From: an uncultured Actinomycetes bacterium
GTDB taxonomy: Bacteria > Actinomycetota > Acidimicrobiia > IMCC26256 > DASPTH01
Length of the DNA stretch: 64,000 bases
Assembly (NCBI GenBank): GCA_963720765.1
Contig: CAVRGS010000013.1
Coordinates: forward strand, 342,071-406,070
Direction of reading: 5' to 3'
Numbering within the stretch: position 1 is the first letter of the stretch; the number at the start of each line of letters is the position of its first letter. The notes under the pieces were generated by a model that saw only the letters and a program-made list of their open reading frames with translations, was not told the DNA's origin and did not search any database. The position numbers and the translations under genes were made by a program. Shown here piece after piece: positions 728 through 64,000 of this stretch.

Positions 728-1591
728 ATGCCGCACGCACACGTCAACGACCTCGACATCGCCTACGAACTGATCGGGGAGGGCCGGCCCTGGGTGATCA
801 CACCCGGCGGCCGCTTCAGCAAGGACGACGGCGGGATCCGCGAGCTGGCCGAGGCGCTGGCCGCGCACGGCAACCAGGTCCTGATCTGGGACCGGCCCAA
901 CTGCGGTGAGTCCGACGTGTGCTTCACCGGCGAGTCGGAATCGACCATGCAGGCCGACACGCTCGCAGCGCTGATCTCGCACCTCGACCTCGGCCCGACG
1001 GTGATCGCGGGTGGGTCGGGTGGCGCGCGCGTCTCGATGCTCACCGCGGGTCGTCACCCGGCGCTCGCCGCCGGCCTGGCGATGTGGTGGATCAGTGGTG
1101 GCCCCTTCGGCCTGATGAGCCTCGCGGTGCACTACTGCGGTCAGAACCTCGTGGCTGCGTGGACCGAGGGGATGCACGCGGTCGCGGACCTCCCCGAGTG
1201 GGAGGGCAGCATCGAACGCCACCCGGTGAACCGCCAGCGCATCCTGGAACAGGATCGCGGCGAGTTCGTGCGCACGATGGAGCGTTGGATGCTGGTGTAC
1301 TACCCGCGCGACGACCAGCTCGTGCCGGGGGTTGCCGACGAGGACGCCGCCCGCATCACCATGCCGACGCTCGTGTTCCGCAGCGGGGAGAGCGATGCGT
1401 GGCACACCCGCGCGACCAGCGAGGCGGTCGCCCAGGGGTTGCCGAACGCGCGTCTCGTGGAGCCGCCCTGGGGCGACCGCGAGTGGCTCGAACGCTCGGC
1501 CGAGCACCGCACCGGTGAAGCGCCGCTGTTCACGGGGTGGCCGGCGCTGGCGCCGCCGCTGCTGGCGTGGGCCGACGAGACGATCAGCTGA
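728..1591 (+). CDS. Alpha/beta hydrolase fold protein
   Basis: Intact 287-aa ORF with a nucleophile elbow GGSGGA and typical a/b-hydrolase layout (ITPGG...LIWDRPNCGES...PTLVFRSGESD). Confidence 0.8.
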   Translation: MPHAHVNDLDIAYELIGEGRPWVITPGGRFSKDDGGIRELAEALAAHGNQVLIWDRPNCGESDVCFTGESESTMQADTLAALISHLDLGPTVIAGGSGGARVSMLTAGRHPALAAGLAMWWISGGPFGLMSLAVHYCGQNLVAAWTEGMHAVADLPEWEGSIERHPVNRQRILEQDRGEFVRTMERWMLVYYPRDDQLVPGVADEDAARITMPTLVFRSGESDAWHTRATSEAVAQGLPNARLVEPPWGDREWLERSAEHRTGEAPLFTGWPALAPPLLAWADETIS

Positions 1592-3213
1592 CCGGCACGG
1601 TCCCGACGCGCAAGGTCGATGCGTGCTCGCCGCCCGCGAGCACCACGCACGTCGCGGCCGGCGGTCGCTGATACCAAGCAGGGAACTGGCCGGTGAACGG
1701 GTTCCGCGGGAAGATCCACCGGCCGCGCACCTCGAGCCGGAGCTCGTCGCCGGCCCGGAAGCGGGTGGCCTGGGGGAGCAGCGCGAGCTCCACCGGCACC
1801 ACCTCACCCGGCGCGACCGGTTCGGCGCACGAGTGCGTGTGCACCGGTTGCAGGTCCGTGCTCAGCGAATGGTCGAGCTCGCGGTGCGCGACGCGTTGCC
1901 AGCCCTTCGTCACCACGTCGTGGTCGAATCCGTACGACCCGTGGAAGTGCACCTCGCGACCGGCGCGGAACTTGCGCACTGCCGCGGTGAGCACCGTGTC
2001 GTCCGCGCCGTCGAGCGACACGTGGAGCGTGAGCGCCATCGGGTCCGATGATGTCGACGCCGTGGGTCACCACCCACCGCCACGTCACTGCGCCGGTGCT
2101 TGTACGGAACGCCGTCGCCGACGATCGGTCGCTCGGCGTCGTCACACAAGGTGCGGGTGGTGTTGTCGAGATGACGGGTGACGATCTCGAGGTCTGCCGG
2201 GGGCCACTCGTTCGCCGTGATCTCGGCGACCGGTGGACCGGCGCGCTCGTACACCTTCGTCACGACCGGTGAGCGAGTCGCCCAGCCGTTGTCGGTCTCC
2301 TTGAGCACGTGGTCGAAGAACGCGAGTCGCTCCGCGTACGCGGCGTCGGAGTAGTACGTCGACCACTTGCCGCCCCGATGCGTCGTCAGCCACTTGCGCG
2401 TCGAGCCCGACCGGCGGAACGCCTCGAACGAGCCGCGGCTGTGCAGCGAGTGGTCGGAGAAACTGCCGCACACCAGCATCGGCACCTCGATGTCCTCGAG
2501 GTGGGGGTGTGGGCCGCATACCAGTCGTCGAGGTCGCGGCGGCGCACGAACTCCCGGCGGAGGTTGCCGACGACGCGCGCCGCCCGTCGCGTCGCCGCGC
2601 TCCAGATGATCGAGAACCCGTCTTCGCGCCCGCCCCGGGCCGCGCGAAGTCGCGGTACACGTCGGAGAAGCCCTCCCACGGGCAGACCGCTGCGAGGTGC
2701 GGCGGGCGCAGCGCGGCGACGCGGTACTGGCCGATCGCGAGGTACGACACGCCGTCGAGTCCGATGTGCCCCGAGCGACCATGGCTGAGCGGCCGCCCAC
2801 TCGATCACGTCGTGGAAGTCGAGTGCCTCGGGCTCGCTCAGCAGCTCGCCGCGCCCGGGCGAGGTGCCGGCGCCTCGCTGGTCGACGTTGACGACTGCGT
2901 AGCCGTGCGCGACCCAGAACGCGGGGTCGGGTGCCTCCCATCCGGTCAAGGACGAGATGCGGATCGGCTCGGGTTGCGGGAACACGCGGTACTGGAAGTT
3001 CGGTCGCCGACCGGTGCGCGAGTGATGGGGGATCGCGTCCTTGCCGTACGGATGCACCGACACGAGCACGGGCACCGGCGCAGGGGCGGACCCGTCGTCG
3101 AGGGGCCGGAACACGTTGGCGCGCAGCACGGTGCCGTCGCGCACGGTGACCGGCACGTCCCACTCGATCGTCATCGGCGGTGGTTCGACCACGGTGACGC
3201 GCGGGCGCAGCAT
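1584..3213 (-). CDS. CocE/NonD family hydrolase (S15 X-Pro dipeptidyl-peptidase-like), frame broken about 5 times as sequenced
   Basis: Consecutive parts of one protein lie in different minus-strand frames:
- 2386..3279: HPYGKD...GYAVVNVDQRGAGTSPG...IEWAAAQPWS
- 2142..2750: SYLAIGQYRVAA..CPWEGFSDVYRDFARPG
- 2386..3279 again: REDGFSIIWSA..DLDDWYAAH
- 1910..3163: HLEDIEVPMLVCGSFSDHSLHSRGS...
- 1804..2145: AFRTSTGAVTWRWVVTHGVDIIGP
- 1584..2039: ALTLHVSLDGADDT... to the stop
Three breaks sit in runs at 2768-2771, 2633-2636 and 2503-2507. Confidence 0.75.
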
Positions 3214-3305
3214 CGTGCGCACTCGTGTCGCCGCGAGCTGCAGCCGGCCTCGGCTCCCACCGCGCTCGTGCTGCATCACGAGGCGGAACGGTATACGTTC
3301 GCCCG

Positions 3306-6112: not shown

Positions 6113-7034
6113 CTAGTCGCGGTCGGCGGGCTTGGCCGCCATCATGTGCGCCTCGAGCAGGTACTCGGGCGGCGTGCGAGTGATCTGCGACTCGGCGCGG
6201 GCCCGGATCTTCGCCTGTTGGGGCTCGCTGGGGTACGTGATCCAGAACACGTCGTCGCGGATGCCCTCGAAGCACAGATCGGCCACTTCCGACAACGGCG
6301 CGAACACCACCGGCAGACCAGCTGCGTCCATGCGCCGCTGGTACTCGCCGAGCGCGTCGCGACCCTCGGTCGGCGGCGCGCCGGGACGGTCGTAGCGGTC
6401 GGGGCGGTTCGCACCCGGACGCCAGATGCCGGTGTTCAACATGCCCGGTGTGCGGCGTCGACGGATAGAGCAACGATGCGCCGACCGTGGCGCCGGTCTC
6501 GCGCAGCTGACCCCACAGGCACTCGGTGATGGTCGTGACCGCGGCCTTCGTCGTCGCGTACACCGCGCTGTTGATGAGCGGCGTGAACCCACCGTTGCCC
6601 GACGTCGTGTTGACGACGTGACACTCCTCACCGCTCGCGAGCAGCGTGGGTACGAACGCGTTGATGCCGTTGACCACACCCATCACGTTGACGTCGAGCG
6701 ACCAGCGCCAGTCGTTGACGTGGTGCTCCCAGAGCTGACCTTCGGACCCCGAGCCGATCCCCGCGTTGTTGCACACGAGGTGCACCGCGCCGAACGCGTC
6801 GAGCGTCGCGTCGCGCAGCGCCTCCACCGACTCGAGCGACGTGACGTCGGTGACGACACCGACGACGTCGCGACCTTCGTCGCGCAGCTCGGCAGTCGTC
6901 TGCTCGACCAGTGCGGGCACCACGTCGGCCAGCACGACGTGCATGCCCTCGTCGGTGAACTTCTCGACGAGGGCGCGCCCGATGCCCTGGCCCGCGCCGG
7001 TGACGACGGCGACCTTCCCCCCGAACTCCTTCAT
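6113..7034 (-). CDS. Short-chain dehydrogenase/reductase (SDR), frame broken once (~6445)
   Basis: The N-terminal piece (5955..7034 frame) has GKVAVVTGAGQGIGRA, NNAG and YATTKAAV (YxxxK). The C-terminal piece is in frame 6113..6679 (MLNTGIWRPG...YPSEPQQAKIRARAE...). The sense switches around LLYPSTPHTG|MLNTG. Confidence 0.8.
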
Positions 7035-9133: not shown

Positions 9134-11026
9134 ATGGCCGGAGTGGCAGCCCCGGAACGAGTCGCGCCCGAGCACGCGCCGGCGCGACTCGGCTACATCC
9201 CCGCACTCGACGGGTTGCGCGCGCTCGCGGTGGTGGCGGTGCTGCTGTACCACGCCGACCAGTCGTGGATCCCGGGCGGGTTCCTCGGCGTCGACGTGTT
9301 CTTCGTGATCAGCGGCTACCTGATCACGTGCCTGCTGCTGTCCGACTACCAGCAGACGAACGGCATCGGCCTGAAGCGGTTCTGGTACCGGCGCGCCCGC
9401 CGCCTGCTGCCCGCGCTCTTCGCCATGCTCTTCGTGGTGTCGCTGTACGCGGTCCTCTTCCTCCCCGACGTGCTCGACCAGCTCCGGGGCGAGGTGATCT
9501 CTGCGCTGCTCTACGTCGAGAACTGGTTCCTCGTCTTCCGCGACCTGTCGTACTTCCAGAGCGCGGGTCGCCCGCCGCTGCTGCAGCACGTCTGGTCGCT
9601 CGCGGTGGAGGAGCAGTACTACCTGTTCTGGCCGTTGATCCTGATGCTGGTGTTGACGGTGTGGGGCAAGAGCCGCAAGGCGTTGCTCATCGGCGTGCTC
9701 GCCGGCGTCGCCATCTCGACGCTCGAGATGGCGATCCTCTACCACCCCTACACCGATCCCGTCGCGCGTGTACTACGGCACCGACACGCGCGTGGCCGCC
9801 TTGCTGCTCGGGTCCGCGCTCGCCTTCGTGTGGGCGCCGTGGCGACTCATCGGCCGCACCGGGCGCAACGCGGGCATCGTCCTCGACGCCGTCGCCGTCG
9901 TCGAGCGCAGTCGTCCTCTTCTCCATGTTCCTCAACGTCCACGACTTCGACCCGAGCCTCTACCGCGGCGGGTTCCTGCTCGTGGCGATCGTGTCGGCGC
10001 TGCTCATCGCGGCAACGGTCCATCCCGCGTCGAAGCTCGTGCCGTGGTTGCTCGGGTTCGGCGTGTTGCGCTGGATCGGGGTGCGCTCGTACGGCATCTA
10101 CCTGTGGCACTGGCCGATCTACATGGTCACCCGTCCGCACTCCGACCTCCCGCTGACCGGCCTCCCGTTGCTCGTGCTGCGGCTCACGCTCACGTTCCTC
10201 GCCGCCGCGGCGTCGTACAAGTACATCGAGGAACCGATCCGTCACGGCGCCATCGAACGCCAGTGGGCGCACTACAAGACCGCGCCGGCCGAGACGCAGC
10301 GCAAGCTGATGACCCGCTTCACGCTCGGCGCCGCCGGGCTCGTCGTCGGGCTGGTGATCATCGTCGATCGGCCTCGGCAACGGCGGCAGCGCGGCGACCC
10401 CTGCGGGATTCGGGACGCGCACCGAGGTCGTGGTGCGTCCGGGGGAGACCACCACGACCCTTCCCGGCGAGACCACCACGGCACCCACGACCGCGCCCGC
10501 CGGCGCGCCCACCACGGTGCCCGGCACTCCCGTCACCACCGTCACCGCCATCGGCGACTCGGTGATGCTCGGTGCGTACGTGCCGCTGAAGTCGACCATC
10601 GACACGATGTTCAACGCCGACGTCACGGGTGTCGACGCGGCCGAGAGCCGGCAGTTCGGCGCGGGCGTCGACCTCATCCAGTCCTACAAGGACAAGGGAC
10701 AACTCGGAGAGATCGTCATCGTGCAGCTCGGCACGAACGGGCCCATCGACCCCGGCGACTTCGACCGCATGATGGGGATCCTGGCCGACCGCAAGAAGGT
10801 GCTGCTGATCAACGCCAAGGAGCCCCGGAGCTGGGAGCAGCAGGTCAACGACACCCTCGCCGACGGGGCCAAGCGCTACAAGAACGCCGTCCTCGTCGAC
10901 TGGCACGCCTTCGGCGGGGCCCACCCGGAGTTCTTCTACGACGACCAGATCCACCTGCGGCCTGACGGGGCGGCCGCGTACGCGAACTTCGTGGCCGAGC
11001 AGGTGGCCGCGGCAGCGTCCTCCTGA
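9134..11026 (+). CDS. Acyltransferase-3 (OafA/YrhL-type) membrane O-acyltransferase with C-terminal SGNH domain, frame broken 3 times
   Basis: The pieces are:
- 9134..10156: YIPALDGLRALAVVAVLLYH...HVWSLAVEEQYYLFWP
- 9768.. frame: VYYGTDTRVAALLLGSALAF
- 9265..10965 frame: RWIGVRSYGIYLWHWPIY
- 10430..11026: AIGDSVMLGA...VQLGTNG...DQIHLRPDG
Breaks lie near 9760, 9900 and 10380, each a +1 frame step. Confidence 0.8.
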
Positions 11027-11102: not shown

Positions 11103-13258
11103 ATGCGCACCCTCTCCCGCTCGTTGATCACCGTGCTCGTCGCGATCGTCATCGGCGGTCTCGCGGTCGGTGCCTGCCTCGCAGCGCTGATCCCGGGCAC
11201 CGTCGAAGTCGCGACCGCGCACCACTACACCGCGCCGCAGGTGAAGGAGCTCAAGGCGCTCGCGCAGCCGTCGCAGATCTACTGGGCCGACGGCTCGCCG
11301 ATGGGTGACTCCCATCGGCATCCAGAACCGCCAGAACATCAGCTCGATCGACGAGGTTCCCAAGATGGTGCAGGACGCGGTGATCGCCACCGAGGACCGG
11401 TCGTTCTGGACGAACGACGGCATCGACCTCGGCGGGGTGTTCCGGGCGTTCCTCACCAACATCACGTCGGGGAAGATCGAGCAGGGCGGTTCCACCATCA
11501 CGCAGCAGCTGGTGAAGAACCGCATCCTCACGTCGAAGCGCGACGTGAACCGCAAGATCAAGGAGATCGAGGACGCGCTGCGGCTCAACGAGAAGTTCTC
11601 GAAGGAGAAGATCTTCGTCGAGTACCTGAACACGGTGTACTTCGGCTCGGGCTCGTACGGCATCAAGGCGGCGGCGTCGCGCTTCTTCTACACGTGGGAC
11701 CCGGGTTCGCCGTTGCCTCGCGGCAAGCACCTCGACGAGCTGACCGTCGGTGAAGCAGCGCTGCTCGCCGGGGTGATCTCGAACCCGACGGGGAACAACC
11801 CCTTCGCCTACCCCGACCGCGCCATCCGCCGCCGGGCCGACGTGCTTCGGGGCATGGTCGAGGCCGGCTACCTCACGCAGGCGCAGTCCGACGCCGCCAA
11901 CAACGAGCCCATCCCCACCATCGCGCCACCTGCGAGCCCGATCGTCGGCACCGACTTCCTCTCCACCGAGGTGCTGCAGGACCTGCTCAGGAACCCGGCG
12001 CTGGGCGCCACCGAGAAGGAGCGCTCCGACAAGATCCTGAAGGGCGGCCTGAAGATCTACACCACCTTCGACCGCGGCCTGCAGGACGCGGCCGTCAACG
12101 CGTCGAACACTGCGAAGCCCCAGATTCGGTCCCGACTGGGTGGCGTCGATCGTGTCGATCGACCCGAGCACGGGCGCGGTCCAGGCGATGGTGTCCGGGC
12201 AGGACTACGCGGAGGAGAAGACCAACATCGCCACCTCGTCCAACGGCCGCCAGACCGGGTCCACGTTCAAGGTGATCACGCTCGCGGCCGCACTCATGAA
12301 CGGGTACTCGCCCGAGGACACGGTCTCGGGTGACGAGCCGTGTCCGGTCCCGAGCAAATTCCCGAACGTGCCGCCCGAGCAGTGGCCCAACAACTCGGCC
12401 GACGGGGCCGAGAACGGCGATCACACGCTGGACCACTCGACCGCGCACTCGATCAACTGCGCGTTCGTCCGCATCGCCACCAGCGTCGGGTACGACAAGG
12501 TGATCGCCACCGCGCACGCAATGGGGATCACCAAGGACAACCTCGAGCCGCTGCTCAACCTCACCCTCGGGACGCGCGAGCAGAACACCGAGACCATGGC
12601 CGCGGTGATGGCGACGATCGCCAACCACGGGGTGCACCACACGCCCTTCGTGGTGCAGAAGGTCGTCGCGGCCGACGGCAAGGTCGTGATCGACGAGTCC
12701 ACCAATCCGGGTGAGCAGGCGCTCACCAGCGATGTGGCCGATTGCGAGGCGAACCTCCTCACCCACGTGGTCACCGGCGGTACCGGCGGCAATGCCGCGG
12801 TGGCCGGCCAGACGATCTTCGGCAAGACCGGTACCACCGACCACACGACCGACGCGTGGTTCATCGGTGCCAACGCTCCCGGATCGAGCCGGCAGCTCGC
12901 CACCGCGGTCTGGTTCGGCAACCGCACCGGCAACATCGGCGGGGCCGGATTCGGCGGCGACTCCGCGGCGCCGGTCTTCGCCGCGTTCATGTCGGCCGCG
13001 CTCGCCGGTGAGAGTCCCGGCGCGATGCCCGATCCCGGTCCGGTGTGCGCCCGGCCCGGCGGCGTGGTCAACCAGGACGGTGGCCGCAACAACGCACCGA
13101 TCGCGCCGGTCAACCCGGCCCCGCAGCAGTTGCCTACTGTGCAGCAGCAGCCGACGGTGCAGACGACGCCGGCGGTGACCGCACCGGCCGCACCGGCCGC
13201 ACCGGCCACACCCAACACCCCCGCCGCGGGCGGTGGCCCGCGACAGAACGGAAACTAG
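11103..13258 (+). CDS. Class A penicillin-binding protein (transglycosylase + transpeptidase), frame broken twice
   Basis: The pieces are:
- 11103..: TM anchor
- 11305..12333: GT51 motifs ATEDRSFWTNDGID, GGSTITQQ
- 12140..13258: transpeptidase motifs STFK, SIN, KTGT
Deleting one G of the GGG at 11303-11305 and one C of the CCC at 12131-12133 restores ..ADGSPMVTPIGIQNR.. and ..QIRSDWVASIVSIDP... Confidence 0.85.
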
Positions 13259-13976
13259 TGACGAGCGAGCTCGACGTCCTCCTGACCCTCCAGGAGCACG
13301 ACACCACCCTCGAGCGACTGCTCCACCGTCACCACACACTTCCCGAGCGCGACGCACTGCGCGACGCCGAAGCCACTGCGGCCGCGCTCGACGCGCGGCT
13401 CGTCACGACCCGCGGTGAACGCGACAAGGTCGCACGCGAGGAGCAACAGCTCGACGACGAAGCCCGCTCGCTGGCCGACAAGGCCACAGAGGTCGAAGGT
13501 CGCATGTACTCCGGCGAGATCAGCTCGCCGAAGGAACTGCAGGCCATGCAGGCCGACGTCGAGCAGCTGCGCAGGCACCAGCGCACGATCGAGAACCGCG
13601 AGCTCGAGCTCATGGAGGTGCGCGAGCCGCTCGACGCCACCGTCGCCGACCTCGAGCAGCAGCGCGCCGCGGTGGGCACCGACGTCGACCGACACGCGGC
13701 CGCGCTCGGCGCCGCCGAGGCCGAGATCATCGCCGAGATGCAGACCGAGCGAGCCACCCGCGACGAGCTCGCCGCCGGGATCGACGCCGGCGCTGGTGAA
13801 GGAGTACGAGCGCTGCCGCGCGCTGGCCAAGGGCGCCGGCGTCGCTCGCCTCGTCGGCACCACGTGCCAGGGCTGTCACCTGTCGATCCCCGCCGTCGAG
13901 GCGGAGCAGATCAAGCGCACGGAGCGGTCAGCCGTTGGCGCACTGCGACAACTGCGGCGCGATCCTGGTTCCCTGA
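13258..13976 (+). CDS. Coiled-coil / C4 zinc-ribbon protein (DUF164, Rv2229c-like), frame broken twice
   Basis: The GTG at 13258 overlaps the PBP stop (taGTG). The product has a long coiled coil, then ..LVGTTCQGCHLSIP.. in the next frame, and ..CDNCGAILVP* in the third frame. Breaks lie near 13790 and 13930. Confidence 0.7.
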
Positions 13977-14393: not shown

Positions 14394-14880
14394 ATGTTCT
14401 TCTGGTACATCGGCCTGTCGGTGTTCGGTGTCGCCACCATCTTCCGCAGCGTCGGCGTCGACTACCGCCTGATCGCGGTCGGGTCACTGCTGCCGCTGGT
14501 CCTCGACCTCGGGTTCGGGTACCGCGCCTACGGCTACACGTTGCTGTTCGCGGTGGCGCTGCTGGTGATCGTGATGGTGGGCACGATCGGCCGGCCCCGC
14601 CTCCTGCGTCGCCGTTGGCTGTGCCTGCCCATCGGCGTGTTCTGCGGGCTGATCCTGTCGGGCGCGTTCGCCAACACCGAGCTGTTCTGGTGGCCGTTCC
14701 TCGGCGGCGACTTCATCCACGACGCGCTGCTGCCCACCTGGTGGGTCGTGGTGATCGAGGAGTTCGTCGGGCTCTTCGTGTGCTGGGTGGTCGTCGGTCA
14801 GTACGACCTCTACCTCCCCGGCCCACACGCCGAAGTTCTTCCGCACCGGCCGCCTCACGATGGGAACACCTCGAGGTTGA
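14394..14880 (+). CDS. Polytopic membrane protein, unknown function; 3-prime end needs one frame correction
   Basis: Hydrophobic product MFFWYIGLSVFGVATIF... with about 5 TM segments. The literal ORF runs to 15833, antisense to bioB. The +1 frame gives ..KFFRTGRLTMGTPRG* and stops at 14878-14880 inside the terminator hairpin. Confidence 0.6.
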
Positions 14881-14930: not shown

Positions 14931-16011
14931 CTACTCGGCGCGGACGGGGATGCCGACGCGCACGGGCTTCGGTGTCTGGGCGGGTCGGGCGTGCGCGCCG
15001 TGGGAGTCGATCACGAAGCGACCTTCGCCGGGGCCGTCGGCGACGGGCATGCCGAGCGCCTCGAGCAGTGCGTGGTCTTCCTCGGGAGGGCGGCCGGTCG
15101 ACGTGAGGTAGTTGCCGACGATCAGCGCGTTGGCGCCCGCGAGCAGCCCCATCGCCTGCAGCTCGCCGAGCACGTACTCGCGACCGCCGGCGAGGCGGAG
15201 CCATGCGCTCGGCAGCACGAGGCGGAAGAGTGCAATCGCCTGCAGCGCCTCCCGCGGGGAGATCATGCGCTGGTCGCCGAGCGGCGTGCCGGTGGGGGGG
15301 AGGAAGTTGATCGGCACCTCGCACGGTTCGAGGTCGGCGAGCTCGAACGCGAAGTCGACGCGCTGCTCGAGGGTCTCGCCCATGCCGAGGATGCCGCCGC
15401 AGCACAGCTCCATGCCGGCGTCGATGGCGAGCTTGGCGGTCTCCACCCGGTCGTCGTAGGTGTGCGTGCTGACGATCGACGGGAACAGCGCTCGCGGCGC
15501 CTCGAGGTTGTGGTTGTAGCGCTTGACGCCCGCCGCAGCGAGGCGTTCGGCCTGCTCCGGGGTGAGGAGCCCGAGCGAGCACGCCACCTCGAGGCCCGTC
15601 TCGCGCTGCACCGCGTCGACCGCTTCGATGACCCGGGTCAGCATGCGCTCCGACGGGCCGCGCACCGCGACCACGATGCAGAACTGCGTGGCACCGGCCT
15701 CGCGCGGTCGCGTGCGCGGCCTCGAGCACCTCGTCGAGCTGGAGGAGCGGGTACACGTCGACGTCGGTGGAGTAGCGCGCCGACTGCGAGCAGAACGCGC
15801 AGTCTTCGGGGCAGGCCCCCGACTTGGCGTTGATGAGGCTCTCGAGCTCGACCTCGGCGCCGCAGTACGCGAGGCGCACGCGGTGCGCGACGGCGACGAG
15901 GTCGGGGAGCTCGTCGAGGGGGACCGCCGCCACTGCGAGGACTTCGTCGCGCGTGAGCGGGCGGCGTTCCTCGAGCAGCGCGGTCTCGGCGACCAGGAGG
16001 GCGTCGTGCAT
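14931..16011 (-). CDS. bioB: Biotin synthase, frame broken once (~15695)
   Basis: The N-terminal piece (frame of 14713..16272) starts at the ATG at 16011 and contains the radical-SAM motif CPEDCAFC. The C-terminal piece is 14931..15674 (VAVRGP...YNHNLE...CCGGILGMGE...). Removing one base in CCGGCC (15694-15699) gives ..ATARGGATQFCIVVAVRGP... Confidence 0.85.
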
Positions 16012-16305: not shown

Positions 16306-17912
16306 TTGGTGGTGGCGAGCGAGGATCGACCGACGCGGGCCGCGGCGCGCATGAGCGTCGCCACGCTCGCGTCCCGCGGGGTCGGCTTCGTCAAGGTCTG
16401 GGTGATCGCCGCCGTCCTCGGCGCCACCTATCTGGGCAACACCTACCAGGCATCCAGCTCGGTCTCCAACATCCTCTTCGAGCTGATCGCGGCCGGCGCG
16501 CTCTCGGCCGTCCTGGTTCCCACCTTCGTCGACCTGTTCCGCGCGGGTGACGACGGGGAGGCCGAACGGCTGGCGTCAGGCGTGCTGGGCATGGCCCTGG
16601 CGATCATGGCCGTGGTCTCGATCATCGGCGTGGTGTTCGCCGTGCCCATCGCTCGAATCCTCTCGAGCAGCGCCCCGAACGCCCAGATCGAGTCGCAGCA
16701 GGTGGCGCTCTCGGCGTTCTTCCTCCGCTTCTTCGTGCCCCAGGTGCTGCTCTACGCCGTGGGCACGGTGGCGACGGCGGTGCTCTTCGCCAAGCGCCGC
16801 TTCGTGATCGTGGCGGTGGCGCCGATCGCCAACGCCGTCATCCTCGTCGCCACGATGGCGATCTTCCACGCGCTGCACGGCCCGAACCCGGGCCTCGACC
16901 TCACCACGGCCGAGAAGCTCGTGCTCGCCATCGGCGGCACGCTCGGCGTCGTCGGCTTCGTCGCGGTGCCGACGGTGGCACTCGTGCGCAGCGGTTTCCG
17001 CCTGCGCGCGACGCTCGGCGCGGTCGACCGCAAGCTCCGACGGCTGCTCTTCCTCTCGGCGTGGGTCGCACTGCAGCCGGATGTCGCGGTGCTGCTCGGC
17101 GCGGCCCTGGTGATGGGCAACCAGGTCGCCGGCGGTGTGGTCGCGTACCAGTTCTGCTTCGTCGCGTTCCTCGCGCCCTACGCGATCCTGGCGCAGCCGA
17201 TCCACACGACGATCCTCCCCGAGCTCACCCACGACGTCGCGACCGACGACATGCCGGCGTTCGCCGGTCGACTGCGTTGGGGCCTCGACGGCATGTCGCG
17301 TCTCCTGCTCCCGGTCAGCGCGGCGTACGTCGCGCTCGGCGCTCCCGGTGATGCGGGTGCTCGCGGTCGGCAACAGCCGTCACGAAGCCGACCTCTTCGC
17401 CGCCGCGCTCGCGTCGCTCGGCATCGGCCTCTTCACGTACGGCACGTTCCTCTTCTTCGCTCGTGCGATGTACGCGCTCGGCGACAGCCGCACGCCCGCG
17501 ATCATCGCCGGGGTCGAGCGCGCTCGTCGGTGCCGGGGTGATGATCGCGGGAGGCCTGGCGTTCGAGAGCGACACCGCCAAGGTCGCCGCCCTCGGCCTC
17601 GGACACAGCGCGGCGTACTTCCTGGGCACGATCGCCCTCGGTGTGGTGTTGCGCAAACGGGTGGGTCACGGGTTCTTCCCACACGCGTTCTTGCCCTCGC
17701 TGGCAGCGTCAGCTGCGCTCGGGGGCCTGGCGTGGTTGGTGGAGCACCTCGTGGGCCCGAGCGGTCGGTTGGCGAACATCCTGCTGCTCGTGGGGATCGG
17801 TGTGCTCGGGCTCGGCCTCTACCTGCTGCTGCTGCGCATGCTGCCCAAGCGCGGCGACCGCCTCGAGCAGGCGTTCGAACCCATCGATCCCGATCTCGCG
17901 GTCGAACCGTGA
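16306..17912 (+). CDS. murJ: Lipid II flippase MurJ/MviN, frame broken twice
   Basis: The pieces are:
- 16306..17541: SRGVGFVKVWVIAAVLG...YQASSSVSNILFELIAAGALSAVLVP
- 17135.. frame: VMRVLAVGNSRHEADL...ARAMYALGDSRTP
- 17463..17912
Deleting one C of the CCC at 17344-17346 restores ..LGAPVMRVLAVG... Confidence 0.8.
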
Positions 17913-20169
17913 CCCGGCGAGTCGTCGCCGCCATCGCGCTCGCGGTGCTCGCCCAGTTCCTGGTGCCCGCGGTGGCTGGCGCGCAAGCGGCCGGCACCAC
18001 GGCGGTGAAGCGCGTGCTCGTGATCTCGCTGCCCGCCACGTCGTGGGGCGACGTGCAGGCGGGTGACGACCCGAACCTCCAGCAGCTCTTCGCGCAGTCG
18101 GCGGTCGCCGACATGATCACCCGCACCGCGGGCCGCAAGAGCTCGATCACGGCGGGCTACACCGCGCTCGGTGCCGGTGGGCGCGCGTCGGCCAGCACCT
18201 TGCTCGCCGGTCAGGCGTTCGAGACCAGCGAGGCCTACGGCGACAGCACCGCCGGCGCGGTCTACCGGCAGCGCACCGGCGTCGAGGCCACGGGCGGCAT
18301 CGTGCACCTGGGGGTCGAGGCGTTGATCAGCGAGAACGCCGACGGCCTCTACAACCCGACCATCGGTGCGCTCGGCGACACGCTCGAACAGGCCAAGGTG
18401 CCACGTGCGGTCGTCGCCAACGGTGACGGCGCGCAGCCCGTGGTGGACGATCCGCTGCAGCCCTACCAACGGGCCGCGGTCAACGCGCTGATGGACAGCA
18501 AGGGCCGTGTTCCGTCGGGCAGCGTGAGCGACGACCTGCTCGAGCCCGATCCGCACGCGCCGTTCGGTCTGCGCACCGACAACGACGCCGCGTACCGCGC
18601 GTTCTCCGAAGCGTGGCAGCAAGGCGGTGTCGTCCTCGTCGAGGGCTCCGACCTGCTGCGAGCCGACCTCTACACCGACTTCCTCACCGACCGCCAGGCC
18701 CGGGCGCAGAAGCGCGCTGCGCTCCACCGCGTCGACGAGCTCGTCGGGCGCATGCTCGCCGATGTCGATCCCGCGCACGACGCGGTGTTCGTGGTGAGCC
18801 CGGCGTCGCCCCGTCGAGGTTCGGGGCTCGCGGTCACCGGCATCCGAGCGCCGGGCGATCGAGCCCGAGTTCCTCCGGTCCGCCACCAGCCGGCGCAATG
18901 GGTTCGTGTACGTCATCGACATCGCCCCCACCATCCTCGATCTGCTCGGCATCGACGTGCCGAAGGTGATGGAGGGTCGCGCCATGGAGGTGGTGAACGG
19001 ACCGCCGCGTGACCAGCGCGTCACCACGCTCGTGCACGCCAACGAAGACGCGGTGTTCCGCGACTCCAAGGTCGCGCTCGCCAACAACATCGCGATCGCG
19101 CTCGCAGTCGTGCTCGCGCTCGACGGCCTCGTTGGTCGCGTGGCGCCGTCGCCGCGGTGAGGGGATGGTGCGCTTCTTCGCCCTGGCCGTGCTCGGGTTC
19201 CTGTTCGCCACGTACGCGGCGGAACCGCTGCACTTCGGGCGCAGCGACAACTCGGCCGCGTACCTCGGCTTCCTCGTGGTGGTCGCAGTCGTGTTCGCCG
19301 GCGTGTGCCGCCTGCTCGGCGGCCGGCACCCGTACCGTCCGCTCGCGATCGCGCTCGCGATCACCGTCGTCGGTGCACGTCGTCGACCTGCTCGCGGGCG
19401 CGCGCCTCGAGCTCAACTCCGTGTTCGGCTACTCGGCCACCGTCGGCATCCGAGTCTCCGGTCAGGGCAACATCACGTTCTCGCAGCTCACCGCGGCCGT
19501 GCTGCTGCTCGGGTGGCCTCGCAGTGTGGCGACGGCCCGGGCGCGTCACCGTGTTCGCGGTCATCGCCATGCTCGCGTGCACGCTGTTCGTCATGGCCGC
19601 GCCTCCGTTCGGCGGTGACTTCGGCGCCGCCATCGCCGGTGCCCCGGGCTTCGGCCTGTTCGTGTGGCTGTTGCTCGGCAAGACCATCCGCCTCCGCACC
19701 GTGGCCATCCTCGGTGTCGTGCTCGTGGTCGCCGGGTTCGTCGTCGGGTTCGCCGACTACCTGCGCCCGCGCGACCAGCAGACGCACGTCGGCCGCTTCT
19801 TCGACGAGTTGCTCAACGGGGCGTCGGGCGACTCGTTCCTCACCATCCGGCGCAAGCTCGACGCCAACCTGGCGTCGTTCGGCGGCACCAAGCTGCTGTG
19901 GATCATGCCCGTGGTCGCGCTGCTGGTCTGGTACCTGTGGCGCGTGCGCGGGCGGGCGCATCCGTTCGCTGTACCGATCGGTGCCGGTCATCCGCCAGAC
20001 GGTGCTCGCGCTCGGGGTCGTGGCGCTGCTCGGCTACGCGCTCAACGACTCCGGCGTCGCCATCCCCGCGGTGATGGCGCTCGTGTTCGAGTGCGCCGCT
20101 CGTGTTCGTCGCGCTCACTCCCAACACCGGTTTCGGCGTCAGAGTGGCGCGATCATCCGCCCCGGTTGA
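17909..20169 (+). CDS. Large membrane protein: N-terminal exported alkaline-phosphatase/sulfatase-like domain + polytopic C-terminal domain (Rv3909-like position after murJ), frame broken at least 5 times
   Basis: The GTG at 17909 overlaps the murJ stop (GTGA). It has a signal/TM segment VAAIALAVLAQFLVPAVAGAQA and the motif NGFVYVIDIAPTILDLLGIDVP. The TM-rich pieces step through frames 18906, 19009, 19157, 19305 and 19009 again, each a +1 step. The 3-prime end is uncertain. Confidence 0.6.
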
Positions 20170-21095
20170 CGCCCGAACGCGTCGGAGTCGGAACGCGGCG
20201 AGCCAACCCGGGAGTGGGATCCCCGCGTCGGTCGAGCTGCTGAGCGAGCCGCTCGTTCGGCTCCTCGGTATCGGGACGCGAGCTCGGCGCGCACGGAGTC
20301 GGGGACATGTTCCTCGGCGGGACGGCCGTTGAGCCGGTAGTAGAACGCGCGCAGCTTGCGCTTGGCGTCGGGGTGGCGGCGCAGCACGCGCTCGAGCTTG
20401 TCGTTGCCCGCGAGGGCGACGCGCTGGAAGCTCTCGCTCTTGAACCCGGTGGTGCGGTTCTCGGAGCTGAGCGCGTCGGCCGGGAACCCTGCGGGATCGA
20501 GGCCGAGCCACGCCGCGGTCTCGTGGAGCGTGCCGACCTGGTCGCCGACGAGCCGATCGAAGTCGACGACGCGCACGTGGTCGGTACCGAGCACCTCGAG
20601 CCATCCAGGGAGGAACTCGGCGTAGCACCCCCCTCGGAACGCCATGTACTTCTCGTTGTCGGGATCCTGGAAGTCGGCGGGCGTGAGGGCGTCGGCCGCG
20701 GTCAGGTACTCGGTGATGGGGTAGTCGGCGGGGAAGCGCAACCGGATCTTCTGGTAGCTGAAGAACGACAGCGCGCGACTCACCGGCTCGCGGAGCACGA
20801 CGAGCGCGCGTGGATCGACCAGGCGTGCCTGCATCGCTTCGGCGACCGCCGCGCTCCCGTAGAAGTACGAAGGCGTCGCTTCCAGGTGCACGGGCCGGTC
20901 GCCGGCGTCGGCGAAGTAGGCATCCCACTCCGCGGCGGGCGGCAAGGCCTCTCCGTAGCGCGCCGGCAGGAAGAACCGAGTTTCCTTGATCGACGACGGC
21001 GCGACGTCAGGATGCGTCGACAGCGACACGAACAGCGAGGTCGTGCCGGCTTTGTTGACTCCGGCGATGATGGCATCGGTGCGGCCGCGCGCCAA
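20139..21095 (-). CDS. Sulfotransferase family protein; C-terminus probably affected by an indel
   Basis: It has the PAPS-binding 5-prime-PSB-like motif [13 protein letters not shown], plus ..[14 protein letters not shown]... Near 20280 the adjacent frame reads more naturally (..[17 protein letters not shown]..) and would stop at 20153. Confidence 0.7.
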
Positions 21096-39319: not shown

Positions 39320-39348
39320 CTGTCACACCCTCGCGCCAGAGTGGTCAC

Positions 39349-39534
39349 ATGTTGACCATCGACTGCTCCGAGTGCGTGATGCGGGCCACCACCGCCTGCG
39401 ACGACTGTGTGGTGTCGTTCGTCGTCGGCAGGGAGCCGGGGGAGGCCCTCGTGATCGACGCCGAGGAGGAACGGGCCGTCCGCTTGTTCGCCAAGGCCGG
39501 ACTGGTGCCGCGGCTGCGTCACGTCGCGGGGTAG
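39349..39534 (+). CDS. Small Cys-rich protein (61 aa)
   Basis: MLTIDCSECVMRATTACDDCVVSFVV... has two CxxC pairs. Intact ORF with coding-like composition. Confidence 0.5.
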   Translation: MLTIDCSECVMRATTACDDCVVSFVVGREPGEALVIDAEEERAVRLFAKAGLVPRLRHVAG

Positions 39535-39590
39535 CGTCCTGCCGCGGGCCGCAGGGCGGCTACGACAGGTCCACATACCGGGAGGGCGAC

Positions 39591-40130: not shown

Positions 40131-40157
40131 GTCCGGCGAACCCGGGGGGAGCCGCGC

Positions 40158-41261: not shown

Positions 41262-41263
41262 GC

Positions 41264-43028: not shown

Positions 43029-43035
43029 GGTCCAA

Positions 43036-44418: not shown

Positions 44419-44482
44419 CGCCACCAGGAGCGCGCCATCGGCCATGCTGTGGCCGGCATCGAGGGTCGACGGGAGCACTGGC

Positions 44483-45883: not shown

Positions 45884-45904
45884 CGCCGAGCCGGCGACCC
45901 TCGG

Positions 45905-45909
<5 letters not shown>
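45879..45909. terminator. Stem-loop spanning both stop codons of convergent genes
   Basis: GCTGAC(G)CCGAG-CCGGCGACC-CTCGGTCAGC gives an 11-bp stem with one bulge. Confidence 0.45.
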
Positions 45910-47227
<1,318 letters not shown>

Positions 47228-47288
47228 GCAGCGTACCCGTCGGCGCGGGAGCCACTTCCGGTCGGCAGCACTCGCCTACGGTGGCCCG

Positions 47289-48361
47289 GTGGCGGTGGCT
47301 GAACGCGACCTGACGAGCGGAGCCACCGGGGGGTTCGTCGGATTGTTCCCGTGGCGCGGGGTCGTCGCCCCGTGGCTCCTGTCGCGGGCGTTGTCGATCG
47401 TCGTGCTGCTGGCCGCGGTGAACGATCCCGCCGCGGGTCGCGCTTCGTGCAGGTGGCGACGCGCTGGGACGGCGCCTTCTACCTCGACATCGCCCGCAAC
47501 GGTTACGGCCCCGTCGACGTCCCGTTCCCGAAGTGGCCGTTCTTCCCCATGCTGCCGGGGTTGATCCGGGGCCTGAGCGAGGTGGCCGACGACAAGGCCG
47601 CCATCTTCCTGCTCAACCAGGTCGTGTTCCTGGTGGCACTCGCCGGTGTCCACCGGCTGGCGTCGCGCCGCGGTGGGGTGACGGTGGCGCGGCTGGCGAC
47701 CTGGTCACTCGCGCTCTTCCCCGCGTCGTTCGTGTTCTCGATGACCTACCCGTCGGCGATCTTCCTCGCCGCGTCGGTGTGGGCGTTCGTGCTGGTCGAG
47801 GACGAGCACGACATCGCCGCCGGGCTGGTCGCGGTGGGAGCCGCACTGGTGCGTCCCAACGGTGCGGTGCTCGTGATCGCGCTGATCGTCGCGGTCTGGC
47901 CGTCGTTGCGACGCGCGCTCGTCGTGGCGGCGCCGTCGGTGGTCGCGGTCGCCGCGTGGTGTGCCTACTGCTGGGATCGCACCGGTGACCCACTGGTGTT
48001 CCTCACCAGCAAGTCGCGCTGGCAGGAGATCACGTTCGTCGGGTTGTTCGAGGGCCACGTCAAGTGGTCGGTGCTCCCGCACATCGGGTTGGCGATCGGC
48101 GCACTCGCGGTGCTGGTCGTGCAGCGCAAGAAGTTGCCGGTGTCGTGGCTGGTGTTCGGAGTGCTCTATCTCGTCCCGTCGTTGCAGCTCGGCATGGTCG
48201 GGGTCGGGCGCTACGCCAACGAGTGCTTCCCTCCGTTCGTCGGCGTCGGCCAGCTGCTCGCACGCTGGTCGGTGCGCATCCGAGCCCTCTACTTCGTGGC
48301 GTCGACCGTCGGCCTCGTGCTCTTCGCCGTCGTCGCCGCCCGCTACGAGCTCGTCCCCTGA
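47289..48361 (+). CDS. GT-C-fold membrane glycosyl(mannosyl)transferase-like protein (PIG-V/DUF2029-like), frame broken once (~47430)
   Basis: The N-terminal TM lies in the frame of 47025.. (VAPWLLSRALSIVVLLAAV). The product then continues as ..RFVQVATRWDGAFYLDIARNGY.. and about 8 TM segments in 47351..48361. The family call is tentative. Confidence 0.6.
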
Positions 48362-48378: not shown

Positions 48379-49114
48379 CTACGCGCCCATGAGGGCTCGC
48401 CATTGCTCCAACGTGGGGACACGGAACACGTAGTTGTGGGCGCGGGTGTCGCCCATCGTCGCCGACGCCGCCGGGGAGTAGCGGTGGCCCGGGTACAGCA
48501 CGGTGGTGTCGGGGAGCGTGGCCAGGCGCTGCGTGAGGCTCTCGTACATCGCGTCGGGATCGGAACCGGGGAGGTCGGTGCGGCCGCAGCCCTCGAGGAA
48601 CAACGTGTCGCCGGCGACGAGCCGGCCGTCGACGACGAAGCACTGGCTGCCGGGTGTGTGCCCGGGCGTGTGCATGAGCTCGATCGGGATGCCGCCGGCG
48701 TGCACGACGTCGCCGCTGTCGTGCAGCGAGAGGTCGGAGTCGGACAGGCCCGTCGAGCGCTTCACCCACTCGGCCTCGGCGCGCTGGATGTGCACGGGCA
48801 CGCCACCACCGTCGAGCGCGAGCAGCTCGCGGCAGACCCTCGATGGAGTAGCCCATGATGTCGCCGCCGCAGTGGTCGGCGTGGTAGTGCGTGACGAGCG
48901 CGCCGGTCAGGCGGAGGCCGTCGGCTGCGAGCAGATCGACGAGCTCCCCGACGCCGTACGCGGGGTCGACCACCACGGCCTCGCCGGTTTCGCGGTCGCC
49001 GACGAGGTACACGAAGTTCACCATCTGGCGCGCCAGCGGGTCGTCACGAGCGAAGTCGGTACCCGACAGGAGCTGGCGGAAGTAGAGACGGTCCTCGTGC
49101 TCGTTCCAGCTCAT
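48379..49114 (-). CDS. MBL-fold metallo-hydrolase (glyoxalase II-like), frame broken once (~48830)
   Basis: The ATG at 49114 gives MSWNEHEDRLYFRQL...VTHYHADHCGG (HxHxDH). The C-terminal piece 48379..48801 has ..MHTPGHTPGS..GDTLF..GCGRTD.. Confidence 0.8.
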
Positions 49115-53841: not shown

Positions 53842-54826
53842 TCAGCAGCCGCCACCCCATGGGCCCGTGCCCTGCCACTGGTACAGCACCCAGGCCATCT
53901 CGTCCTGGTCGTAGGGCGAGGCCAGGTTGGGTGGCACGCCGACGAGGTCGGACCGGCCCGCGTGCGCTGCGGTGACGTTCCAGGTGGCCTGCAGGAACTG
54001 GTAGGCGCCGAGGTAGGGACCGGACGGGTTCACCACGCCGTAGTTGCCCCCGCTCTCCCGCTGGCGCACGCAGCTGAGGAACGGATCGTCGTGGTGCGGG
54101 CTGACCCCGGGCGTTCCCGAGTAGTCGGGAGGTGGGGGAGGTGTGCTCGGCGCGGGCACCGTCGTGGTGGTGGTCGGTGCGGCCGCCGCGGGCGCGGTGC
54201 CCGTCGTCGTCGTGGTGGTGGTCTCGGCTGCCTTGGCTGCGGCAGCCTGCGCGGCTGCCGCTTGCACCTGCTCCTGGGCCTCGGCCTGGGCGAGCTTGGC
54301 GTCGATCGCCGCGCCCTGAGCCTTCAGCTGGGCGAGCGCGTCGGCCTGCGCCTGACGGGTGTCGCGCAACTCCTGCTCCTGCTTGTGGAGCGCACGCGTC
54401 GCCTTGTGCAACGCGGCGTAGACGTCCTGGTCGTGCGCGTTCACCTGGTCGATGAGGTGCGCTCGACGCGCAGCCTCGAGCGTGTCGTTGCCGTCGACCA
54501 GTGTCGCGAGCTGCGTGCCCGCCGATGTGTACGCGACCAGCGCGCGTGGCGCGTGCAGCCTCGCGCGCAGCCCTGGCGCGCGCGAGCAGGTCGTCGCGCT
54601 GTTGTTCGCTGCGCGCGATGTCGTCGTCGAGCGAAGACACGCGCTCGAGCGCGGTGAAGTACTTCGACGACAGTGCATCGGCTTGCGCGCGCAGGTCACT
54701 CGCGGTGTTCGTGGTCTGCGCCTGCGCCTGCGCGAACGGGGCGAGCGCGATGCCGAGGGTGGCGCACAACGCCACGAGCACCCCGAGAACGAGCGCGCGC
54801 GAACCCGATTCACGGACCAGCGGCAT
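53842..54826 (-). CDS. Secreted coiled-coil protein with C-terminal transglycosylase-like domain, frame broken once (~54540)
   Basis: The ATG at 54826 gives MPLVRESGSRALVLGVLVALCATLGIALAPFAQA, followed by a coiled coil and a Thr/Pro linker. The C-terminus reads LSCVRQRESGGNYGVVNPSGPYLGAYQFLQATW (frame of 53842..55026). Confidence 0.7.
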
Positions 54827-59163: not shown

Positions 59164-60242
59164 GTGATCGCGAGGGCTGATCCTGGGGGCTCCTACACTG
59201 GCGGCGCTCTGGCCCCCTCATCGTTCGACGCCGTTTCCGGGCGCCGGTGCGTCGTCACCGGTGGACTCGGGTTCATCGGGGCCAACCTCGCGTTGGCCCT
59301 GGCCGAGGGGGGCGCCGACGTCACCGTGATCGACGCGCGCGTCACCCGCCACGGGGCCAACCCGTGGAACCTGGTGCCCGACGGTGACGAGGCCGGTGGT
59401 CGAGGGGAGGCCGACACCCGCATCGCGGTCGTGGAAGCCGACATCGGTGACACCGACCGTCCCGACGTGCGCGACGCCACGGTCGCGGCCGACGTGGTGT
59501 TCAACCTCGCTGGGCAGGTCAGCCACGTCGACTCCATGAGCGACCCGCTCTTCGATCTCGACGTGAACACGACGAGCCAGTTCCGCTACCTCGAGCTGCT
59601 CGGCGCGAGAACCCGAGCGCGACGGTCGTGTTCACGTCGACCCGCCAGATCTTCGGCAAGCCTCGCTACCTCCCGGTCGACGAAGACCATCCGGTCGCAC
59701 CGGTCGACGTCAACGGCATCACCAAGTACGCGACCGAACAGCTGCACCTGCTGTATCACGACGTGTACGGGCTCCGGTCCACCGCGGTTCGACTCACGAA
59801 CGTGTTCGGTCCGCGCCAGCGCCTGCGTGACGACCTGCAGGGGTTCCTCCCGATCTTCGTGCGGCGCGCACTCGCCGACGACGCCATCACGGTGTTCGGT
59901 CACGGCGAACAGCAGCGCGACTGCCTCTACGTCGACGACGTCGTCGAGTGCCTCTTGCTCGCGGCCACGTCGAACGACGCACCTGGCCAGATCTTCAACG
60001 TCGGCAACGACGAACGCCTCTCGTTGGGTGCGATCGCCGACGCCGTGGTCGCCGCCGCGGGGCAGGGGCGCGTCGACTACGTGCCGTGGCCACCAGACCG
60101 CGACGCCATCGACATCGGTTCCTACTTCGGTGACTCGTCGAAGGCGAAGCGCCTGCTCGGTTGGGAGCCGCGCACCACGTTTGCCGACGGCATCGCCCGC
60201 ACGCTCGCGTTCTACCGGGCGCGCGCGGCGTGGTACCTGTGA
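59164..60242 (+). CDS. NAD-dependent epimerase/dehydratase (extended SDR), frame broken once (~59605)
   Basis: The Rossmann motif is VVTGGLGFIGANLA. After the break, frame 59628..60242 reads ..VVFTSTRQIFG...NGITKYATEQ...RLTNVFGPRQ... The start (GTG at 59164) is a guess. Confidence 0.7.
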
Positions 60243-62752: not shown

Positions 62753-62780
62753 GCGCGGCGAGGGTACCGGGGTGGGGCGC

Positions 62781-64000
62781 TCAGCGCGAGGCGACGCGCA
62801 CGGTGTCGATGACGAGGTCGGACGACGACCACGCCTGCACGCCGACCCGGTCACCACTGGCCGCGTCGCGTCCGCGATCGGCCGACGCCTGCTTCAGGTT
62901 CTCGACGGTCAGGACGTCGACCCCGTTGACCTGCGCCCGGAGGTGTTCGCCGATCACTTCGATGCGCACGAGCAGCGTGCCGTACATCGACGTCGGATCG
63001 TCACCGCCCACGCGAGCGATCGGGTTCCACAGCTCGCGGTCGGCCTGCCACTGGCGCACGAGATAGCCGCCACCGTCGTAGATGGGATCGATGTCGAACG
63101 AGTAGCCCGACATGCGGCCCTCGTCGTCGATCGACGCGCGGAAGAGCACACCCAGACCCGGGCCGGAGCGGAAGTCGACCTCGACCTCGGCGACGAAGTC
63201 GGAAGCTGTGATCACGTCGGCGAGCGCCCAGCGCTCGTCGGCGCGGCGCATCACGAGTCCGCCCTGGCCACGCACCTCCACCAGCGGGAGTGCGTTGCCG
63301 AGCTGCCAATCCGGACCTGCGGTCACGAACGCGTCGCCGATCGGCTGGGGCTCGGGCTCGTCGATCGCGGTGGGCTCGACGATCTCGGGCGTCGCGGTGA
63401 CGGGCTCGATCGAGGCCGGCTCGACGGGCCCGGTCCGCGTCGGCGACGGCTGGGCCCAGACGGGAGCGACGTCACCGGGCACGTCGACGATCGTCTCGGA
63501 GGAGTGGACGTTCCGTTCGGCGGTCGTGGCGACGTCGGCCGAGGCGATCTCGTCGCTCGTGTCGGCGACCTCGGATTCGGCGATGTGCGAACCGTCGGCG
63601 CGCCAGCTGATGTGCGCCAACTCGACGGTCTCGGCTTCGACGGAGGTCGCGGGCGCGTCGGCATCCACGGGCGGGACCGGTTCGACGGGTTCGACGGCGG
63701 TGTCGGCCATGGCGGCCGCGTCGGTGGCGGGCGTCCACGTGTCCCACGTCGGCGGCGCGTCCATCATCGGGGCGTCGAGGGCGGTCGAGCCGACGAGATC
63801 GGTCTCGGCCCCGATGATCTCGGCCGTCTCGTTCGCCGGTGTCCACTGCTCCCACGCCGGACGATCGTCGGCGACGTCGCGGCGCCTCGACGATCTCGGT
63901 GTCGACGATCTCGGTGTCGACGATCTCGGTGTCGACGATCTCGGTGTCGACGATCTCGGTGGCGTCCGTCTGCGACCAGGCGTCCCAGGCGGCGGGGGCG
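62781..64000 (-). CDS. Acidic repeat protein with C-terminal DUF1080/LamG-like (concanavalin-type) domain; 5-prime end outside the window, frame broken once (~63880)
   Basis: The C-terminus reads ..GPGLGVLFRASIDDEGRMSGYSFDIDP...LLVRIEVIGEHLRAQVNGVDVL...GVQAWSS... Upstream, the frame stays open past the first ATG (63767). It shows W-x2-W motifs and a (DTEIV)x5 repeat in the adjacent frame. Confidence 0.65.
   Translation of the reverse strand, partial: PPPPGTPGRRRTPPRSSTPRSSTPRSSTPRSSTPRSSRRRDVADDRPAWEQWTPANETAEIIGAETDLVGSTALDAPMMDAPPTWDTWTPATDAAAMADTAVEPVEPVPPVDADAPATSVEAETVELAHISWRADGSHIAESEVADTSDEIASADVATTAERNVHSSETIVDVPGDVAPVWAQPSPTRTGPVEPASIEPVTATPEIVEPTAIDEPEPQPIGDAFVTAGPDWQLGNALPLVEVRGQGGLVMRRADERWALADVITASDFVAEVEVDFRSGPGLGVLFRASIDDEGRMSGYSFDIDPIYDGGGYLVRQWQADRELWNPIARVGGDDPTSMYGTLLVRIEVIGEHLRAQVNGVDVLTVENLKQASADRGRDAASGDRVGVQAWSSSDLVIDTVRVASR
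63887..63961. repeat. 15-bp x 5 perfect tandem repeat (TCGACGATCTCGGTG), coding on the minus strand
   Basis: Read directly from the sequence. On the minus strand it encodes DTEIV five times, continuous with ..AAWDAWSQTDATEIV.. at the window edge. Confidence 0.9.

Follow-up and report, generated by a model that had tools for sequence, protein, structure and literature searches.

Single-base frame breaks in 18 genes of an uncultured Acidimicrobiia contig are very probably an assembly artefact

The DNA stretch analysed in this study (64,000 nt; contig CAVRGS010000013.1 of assembly GCA_963720765.1, positions 342,071 to 406,070 of the forward strand), hereafter the window, came from an uncultured bacterium and carried a long series of recognisable protein genes, among them murJ, a class A penicillin-binding protein (PBP) gene and bioB, whose reading frames were interrupted by single-base changes. 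The G+C content of the window was 70% throughout, so that open reading frames (ORFs) were open in all six frames and ORF lists on their own were uninformative. A plot of third-codon-position G+C by frame and a codon-position score showed many abutting coding segments on the same strand but in differing frames. An initial annotation of the window had reported that consecutive parts of one protein were found in different frames in gene after gene, and the breaks were therefore located by homology: intact proteins of relatives were aligned with the window by tblastn, the matches were chained by frame, and the events were placed by nucleotide alignments (blastn). Isolated single-base indels were counted only where the surrounding context was well aligned.

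Homology searches showed that the nearest relatives of the window were metagenome-assembled genomes (MAGs) of Acidimicrobiia. The class A PBP, repaired by taking one base out at each of the two positions proposed in the initial annotation, served as the homology query and matched more than 4,000 full-length PBPs encoded in a single frame, with a top identity of 93%. Almost the entire window could be matched to syntenic reference DNA on contigs encoding the PBP and other homologues. L001 covered 1.06-16.3 kb at 86% nucleotide identity, and L163, which came from the same Joint Genome Institute (JGI) sample and in which all genes were intact, covered 16.2-34.1 kb at 85-90%. The region of 27-49.6 kb was covered by the short-read “SMAG” MAGs L003, L006 and L031 together with the Microflora Danica MAGs L004-L017, and the region of 46-63.4 kb by L165, which was reached through the MMPL homologue P0241. 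A metagenome scan with the ABC-F protein returned only relatives of at most 56% identity, which were unusable as reference.

The alignments revealed 41 single-base events that disrupted the frame in 18 genes (Table 1). The number of breaks was close to the approximately 40 estimated initially, whereas the number of affected genes was smaller than the approximately 22 proposed. A single-frame passage of the orthologues through these loci had been named in advance as the result that would speak against the frame jumps; when the alignment was run, the orthologue proteins did change frame in the window, at 41 places. The excess of one direction was even clearer than expected, since 37 of the 41 events were one extra base and four were one missing base, compared with the earlier estimate of about 33 of about 39. 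In L001, L163 or L031, the orthologues of all 18 genes were single full-length ORFs. Forty single-base edits turned 17 of the genes into single ORFs that differed from the reference by no more than 8 amino acids (aa) in length, showed 83-97.5% identity and had no internal stops, and the 41st edit repaired the remaining gene, which encodes a 161-aa protein. Neither nonsense mutations nor large deletions were present in the 18 repaired genes, in agreement with the earlier reading of the sequence, and both the tblastn chaining and the full length of the repaired ORFs showed that protein sense was kept on both sides of the breaks. Single-base indels were also found in intergenic spacers of the window.

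Table 1. Positions of the interrupted genes, the unbroken stretch and other elements in the window. Lengths are given as repaired/reference; ~ marks an approximate position, and the letter in brackets is the extra base.
Feature	Position	Strand	Extra base at	Missing base at	Frame order	Length (aa), identity
S15/PepX-type peptidase	1590..3258	-	2044, 2140, ~2777	2506/7, 2634/5		557/557, 83%
Short-chain dehydrogenase	6116..7034	-	6452			306/307, 95%
Acyltransferase-3 (PF01757)	9134..11020	+	9757 (T), 9909 (A), 10366 (G)		2>3>1>2	629/628, 95%
Class A PBP (Transgly + Transpeptidase)	11103..13258	+	~11310, ~12123		3>1>2	717/709
CT398-like zinc-ribbon protein	13258..13976	+	13790 (G), 13923 (A)			238/238, 94%
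161-aa protein	14394..14880	+	near 14835			161/161
bioB (Radical_SAM + BATS)	14934..16011	-	15706 (G)			359/359, 97%
murJ	16351..17912	+	17339 (G), 17515 (C)		1>2>3	519/519, 95%
776-aa membrane protein	17909..20246	+	18857, ~19128, 19373, 19514, 19952, 20097, 20126, 20181, 20198, 20233			
Sulfotransferase-like protein	20182..21095	-	20268 (also 20198 and 20233, in common with the 776-aa gene)			
Short-chain dehydrogenase	23629..24418	+	23680 (G)			262/262, 94%
208-aa protein	25406..26031	-	~25710, 25951 (C)			208/208, 92%
Baeyer-Villiger (4-hydroxyacetophenone-type) monooxygenase	26116..28065	+	26249 (A), 27385 (C), 27662 (T)		1>2>3>1	648/648, 96%
Short-chain dehydrogenase	28452..29306	-	28668 (C), 28687 (G), 29112 (C)			284/284, 97.5%
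Stretch without frame break	29343..47400					
Membrane protein	47256..48361	+		47431/2	3>2	368/369
Metallo-beta-lactamase-fold protein	48385..49114	-	48832 (G)			244/243, 94%
Secreted transglycosylase-like (PF06737) protein	53845..54640	-	near 54549			265/267, 86%
NAD-dependent epimerase	59341..60242	+		59600/1	1>3	300/296, 95%
Function-unassigned paralogue 1	3752-4879	-				~375
Function-unassigned paralogue 2	4894-6006	-				~375
20-nt tandem repeat	16082-16178					
PIN/PhoH protein	21266-22546					427, 95.5%
RNase P RNA class A	34630-35003	-				
Sugar-binding protein 1	43036-44418	+				
Sugar-binding protein 2	44516-45883	+				
15-nt tandem repeat	63887-63961					

The divided genes showed the same pattern at the level of domains. 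The Pfam models MurJ, Transgly/Transpeptidase and Radical_SAM/BATS were split between frames. In the class A PBP, which had been the worked example of the initial annotation, the Transgly and Transpeptidase domains were in separate frames as described there. The presence of murJ, the PBP gene and bioB among the broken genes was also borne out, with 2, 2 and 1 events, respectively. For murJ, the order of frames in Table 1 was obtained with the proteins of both L163 and L002. MurJ profile positions 1-300 were found in one frame and positions 315-357 in the next, and the downstream piece of bioB contained Radical_SAM profile positions 75-163 together with the BATS domain. The S15 peptidase was split into six collinear pieces in alternating frames in the ungapped tblastn alignment with the L001 orthologue, and no stop was left after the repair. 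The same succession of frames was obtained for the acyltransferase with both L001 and L002, and the homologues of the Baeyer-Villiger monooxygenase were 648-aa proteins encoded in a single frame. The gene for the 161-aa protein, when left unrepaired, continued as an ORF for approximately 1 kb antisense to bioB; when one base was removed, the protein ended in ...EFFRTGRLT... at the same length as that of L001. The repaired 776-aa membrane protein, which had accumulated ten extra bases, ended in ...GIPASVSC*, identical to the C-terminus in L163, and its gene overlapped the convergent sulfotransferase-like gene at 20.2 kb, where one set of edits repaired both genes. The missing base in the membrane protein gene at 47.3 kb was seen against nine relatives, and the metallo-beta-lactamase-fold protein was compared with that of the short-read MAG L031. 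The position of the break in the transglycosylase-like gene was less exact, with a local identity of just 0.79.

All of the positions named in the initial annotation were within about 12 nt of those obtained by alignment: 11303-05 corresponded to ~11310, 12131-33 to ~12123, 17344-46 to 17339, 2768-71 to ~2777, 15694-99 to 15706, 2503-07 to 2506/7, and 2633-36 to 2634/5. However, the G/C runs were not in general the indel sites themselves: the extra base was mostly outside the named runs, which for the most part just stood nearby. Several other candidate breaks were rejected. A break at ~21860 in the PIN/PhoH gene, suggested by comparison with L002, was a defect of L002; the gene was intact in the window in one frame, and the identity given in Table 1 is that to L163. 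The frame changes at 35587 and at 38.4-39.6 kb were boundaries between genes that are separate in the relatives. The Leu/Phe-tRNA transferase and ArsC-like ORFs (54972-55577 and 55639-56010) were fused in L165 but are probably two genes, and they were not counted. Many single bases that seemed to be missing in the window in comparison with L165 were extra bases of L165, and the ORFs of the window were intact there, for example in the citrate synthase gene at 46903.

The breaks were indeed present across the interval of 1584-63900 to which they had been assigned, but their spacing was far from even. The first 29.4 kb contained 37 events (1.26 per kb), the next 18.3 kb contained none (P = 5e-5), and the last 16.6 kb contained four. 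The change was sharp at ~29.3 kb. Within the dense part, seven insertions were located inside 330 nt at 19.95-20.27 kb, a concentration that was reached by none of 20,000 simulations. The unbroken stretch extended from a P450 gene to the citrate synthase gene and included the RNase P RNA gene, trpD and a sugar ABC transporter operon. Every gene in this stretch was in a single frame in comparison with L163, L003, L006 and L031, and 0 isolated single-base indels were found in 13.2 kb of alignment with the short-read MAG L006. In quality, this stretch equals a short-read assembly.

The composition and the context of the inserted bases were analysed for the 29 insertions that could be placed precisely. 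The inserted bases were 14 G, 7 C, 4 T and 4 A, near the composition of the genome. The runs that resulted from the insertions were of length 1, 2 and 3 in 16, 10 and 3 cases, respectively, and random insertion would be expected to give 49%, 34% and 13%. In 16 of the 29 cases, no identical base was adjacent. A homopolymer-type error, as produced by 454, Ion Torrent or older Nanopore sequencing, was rejected since the run lengths matched random insertion. No shared sequence motif was evident by eye in the listed contexts of the insertion sites, and scans of the window for Rfam families, tRNAs and tandem repeats returned nothing that bears on the breaks.

The same excess of extra single bases was found in other assemblies, at positions that differed from those in the window. 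In pairwise comparisons, the numbers of extra single bases were 11 in the window versus 3 in L001, 18 in the window versus 2 in L163, 39 in L164 versus 8 in L163, 13 in L165 versus 1 in the window, and 6 in L013 versus 2 in L003. Between short-read MAGs, the numbers were 0 versus 0 (L006 and L031) and 1 versus 0 (L006 and L003), that is, no more than one isolated single-base indel in 5-13 kb. L164 (ERZ25039485 contig_21185) and L165 (ERZ25039543 contig_29811) were European Nucleotide Archive (ENA) assemblies with Flye-style contig names and neighbouring accessions, and their own gene calls were visibly fragmented; L013 was the Microflora Danica MAG MFD05442. Nanopore reads were the sole basis of the Microflora Danica MAGs, which were assembled by Flye followed by a single Medaka round (PMC12313526). 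According to another paper of the same group, Nanopore-only bins below approximately 40x coverage keep indels that fragment gene calls and still require short-read polishing (PMC9262707). Together, the shared signature and the relatives imply that the window most likely derived from an assembly of the Nanopore-only type. Among the long-read MAG contigs of related species (L164, L165, L013, L016, L017 and L002), each had single-base insertions of its own and fragmented genes; for example, MurJ was called with 421 aa instead of 519, the Baeyer-Villiger monooxygenase was found in pieces, and the trpD matches in L016 and L017 spanned 976 nt.

In the window, the extra base was frequently the synonymous alternative of the neighbouring base. 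This was the case for 20 of 31 insertions, compared with 32% in the simulated null (p = 3e-4), and for 26 of 39 insertions in L164, an independent assembly, compared with a null of 30.5% (p = 4e-6). The bias of the aligner was estimated to explain just ~6 percentage points of this excess. At 10366 (C/G), 17515 (T/C), 18857 (A/G), 20181 (C/G) and 48832 (G/C), the two adjacent bases of the window were alleles that were found singly in different relatives. The extra base at 9757 was likewise a synonymous alternative of the adjacent wobble base. A mechanism can be proposed in which the co-assembled strains would differ mostly at synonymous wobble sites and the consensus caller would emit both alleles of a single-nucleotide polymorphism (SNP) in sequence, leaving a one-base insertion. 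Stretches in which the strains diverged would then collect errors, and stretches in which they were identical would collect none. Writing both alleles in this way would explain the insertion bias, the non-homopolymer context and the clustering, and the wobble-adjacent error mode of the window and of the related Nanopore MAG contigs may thus represent both strain alleles in one consensus.

Judged from the sequence and its comparisons, the 41 breaks are very probably an assembly artefact of some kind and not mutations of the organism, and there is hardly any doubt that the organism itself has intact copies of the 18 genes. The preference of the initial annotation for assembly indel errors over pseudogenisation is thereby upheld, since selection (see below), spectrum, clustering and shared signature all agree. 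The most likely source is a long-read metagenome assembly of the Nanopore type, made in the style of Flye and Medaka, with low coverage or mixed strains. For the strain-merge step by itself, the chance appears to be slightly better than even. Previous studies of Nanopore-only assemblies (Sereika et al. 2022, PMC9262707), including IDEEL-type protein-truncation tests, likewise found single-base indels that split conserved ORFs, with a worse effect in bins of low coverage, and the relatives assembled with Flye and Medaka (PMC12313526) showed the same defect. The indels of the window differ from the classical Nanopore indels, which are in homopolymers, in that they had no homopolymer preference, consisted of ~90% insertions and were synonymous alleles adjacent to wobble bases.

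Several points weigh against the artefact explanation, or against the mechanism proposed for it. The case was built on assembled sequence, and the sequencing technology of the window was deduced from that of its relatives. The usual description of Nanopore consensus errors links them to homopolymers, a link that was not seen in the window. The both-alleles mechanism was conceived after the data had been seen, and it depends on the placement of gaps in pairwise alignments. No genome of the same species was found in the collections searched, where the best relatives had 84-91% nucleotide identity, so that comparison alone cannot separate the artefact from a very recent burst of real insertions.

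The alternative that retained most weight, although we consider it the lesser possibility, was that the events were random residual errors of long reads, either from another platform (for example, insertions like those of PacBio continuous long reads, CLR) or from plain low coverage, with no strain mixture. It too is an artefact explanation and differs from the preferred one in mechanism alone. Random error of this kind would fit the directional bias, the independence of homopolymers, the match to base composition and the variation of density along the contig. However, it predicts that the extra base is the synonymous alternative of its neighbour in 32% of cases, and the observed proportions were 65% in the window and 67% in the independent assembly L164; at least five sites at which relatives carry the two alleles singly also argue against it.

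A real and very recent pseudogenisation, in which the lineage acquired approximately 40 frameshifts and lost these genes, was given only a slender chance. The breaks are truly in the assembled sequence and affect many genes, and a real loss is compatible with that sequence, on which the analysis was based. Selection was examined in the repaired genes by the ratio of nonsynonymous to synonymous substitution rates (dN/dS; Nei-Gojobori method against L001 or L163). The values were 0.035-0.29 in the repaired genes and 0.04-0.28 in 15 intact neighbours, with dS of ~0.3. In segments of more than 300 sites, dN/dS after the first break was 0.03-0.21, equal to that before the break and to that of intact genes, which shows purifying selection in the original frame beyond the breaks, and the short-chain dehydrogenase at 28.4 kb had a dN of 0.011 despite three insertions. 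The raised dN/dS that relaxed selection would produce in genuine pseudogenes was thus not found in the repaired genes. The unchanged dN/dS excludes an old inactivation but not a very recent one, because the ratio would not yet respond to a burst that took place after the lineage had split from every relative sampled. The indels themselves argued against real loss. Natural bacterial indels are concentrated in runs, deletion-biased and slippage-prone, the last two reportedly as a rule, whereas the events in the window showed a 9:1 insertion bias with the extra bases outside homopolymers. Furthermore, nonsense mutations and larger deletions were absent from the 18 genes, the lipid II flippase gene murJ and the class A PBP gene were among those hit, seven insertions were crowded into 330 nt of a segment still matching its orthologue while the neighbouring 18 kb had none, and unrelated Nanopore assemblies showed the same signature at sites of their own. 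Decaying genomes, such as those of Mycobacterium leprae and of recently host-restricted symbionts or pathogens, likewise have many frameshifted genes, including housekeeping genes, but these are mixed with nonsense mutations and deletions under a deletion bias and relaxed selection, none of which was seen in the window.

A slimmer chance still was assigned to the possibility that the insertions are real and represent a recent, clustered burst of untemplated single-base insertions in a wild Acidimicrobiia lineage. Such a burst could have come from error-prone patch synthesis across the ~29-kb tract or from its exposure to an intercalating mutagen. If such a burst were real, murJ, the class A PBP gene, bioB and 15 other genes would have been inactivated too recently for other decay to appear. 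Programmed recoding by +1 ribosomal frameshifting or transcriptional slippage, which would account for the protein sense kept on either side of every break and shares with prfB-type frameshifting the one extra base between in-frame halves, has a negligible probability, as already judged initially, because the 41 sites had heterogeneous contexts with no common motif and no conserved shift site, their orthologues were single-frame, up to ten shifts would be needed in one gene, shifts in both directions occurred, intergenic single-base indels occurred as well, and prfB-type sites, unlike those in the window, have a slippery/stop motif that is kept in orthologues.

Other elements of the window were found alongside the broken genes. 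In the spacer between bioB and murJ, a 20-nt unit (GCGAGCGAACCATCGAGCCG) was repeated in tandem 4.8 times with 100% identity; L001 could be aligned over it only with gaps and appeared to be without most of the copies. At its right edge, the window carried 5.0 perfect tandem copies (100% identical) of a 15-nt unit (TCGACGATCTCGGTG) in an apparent coding segment of the minus strand. The full-length class A RNase P RNA (Rfam RF00010, 277 bits, model positions 1-367) was in the error-free stretch. Two pairs of tandem paralogues were present, and all four genes were intact: the sugar-binding protein genes were downstream of ABC transporter permease genes, and the two function-unassigned proteins shared ~29% mutual identity. 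In a gene for a 285-aa protein, at 22994-22996, 24 nt of a CCGTTC-like repeat that was present in L163 were absent in frame, which looks like ordinary variation in repeat length and did not break the frame.

With the assembly artefact as the preferred explanation, an error mode that is insertion-biased, independent of homopolymers and adjacent to wobble bases would escape homopolymer-aware polishing. For the biology of the organism, the 18 genes should count as intact. The locus is an ordinary part of an Acidimicrobiia chromosome, syntenic with its relatives, and the breaks give it no biological feature of its own. The annotation of this record will show gene fragments and false pseudogenes, and assessments of completeness, metabolism or genome decay that build on it can be skewed.

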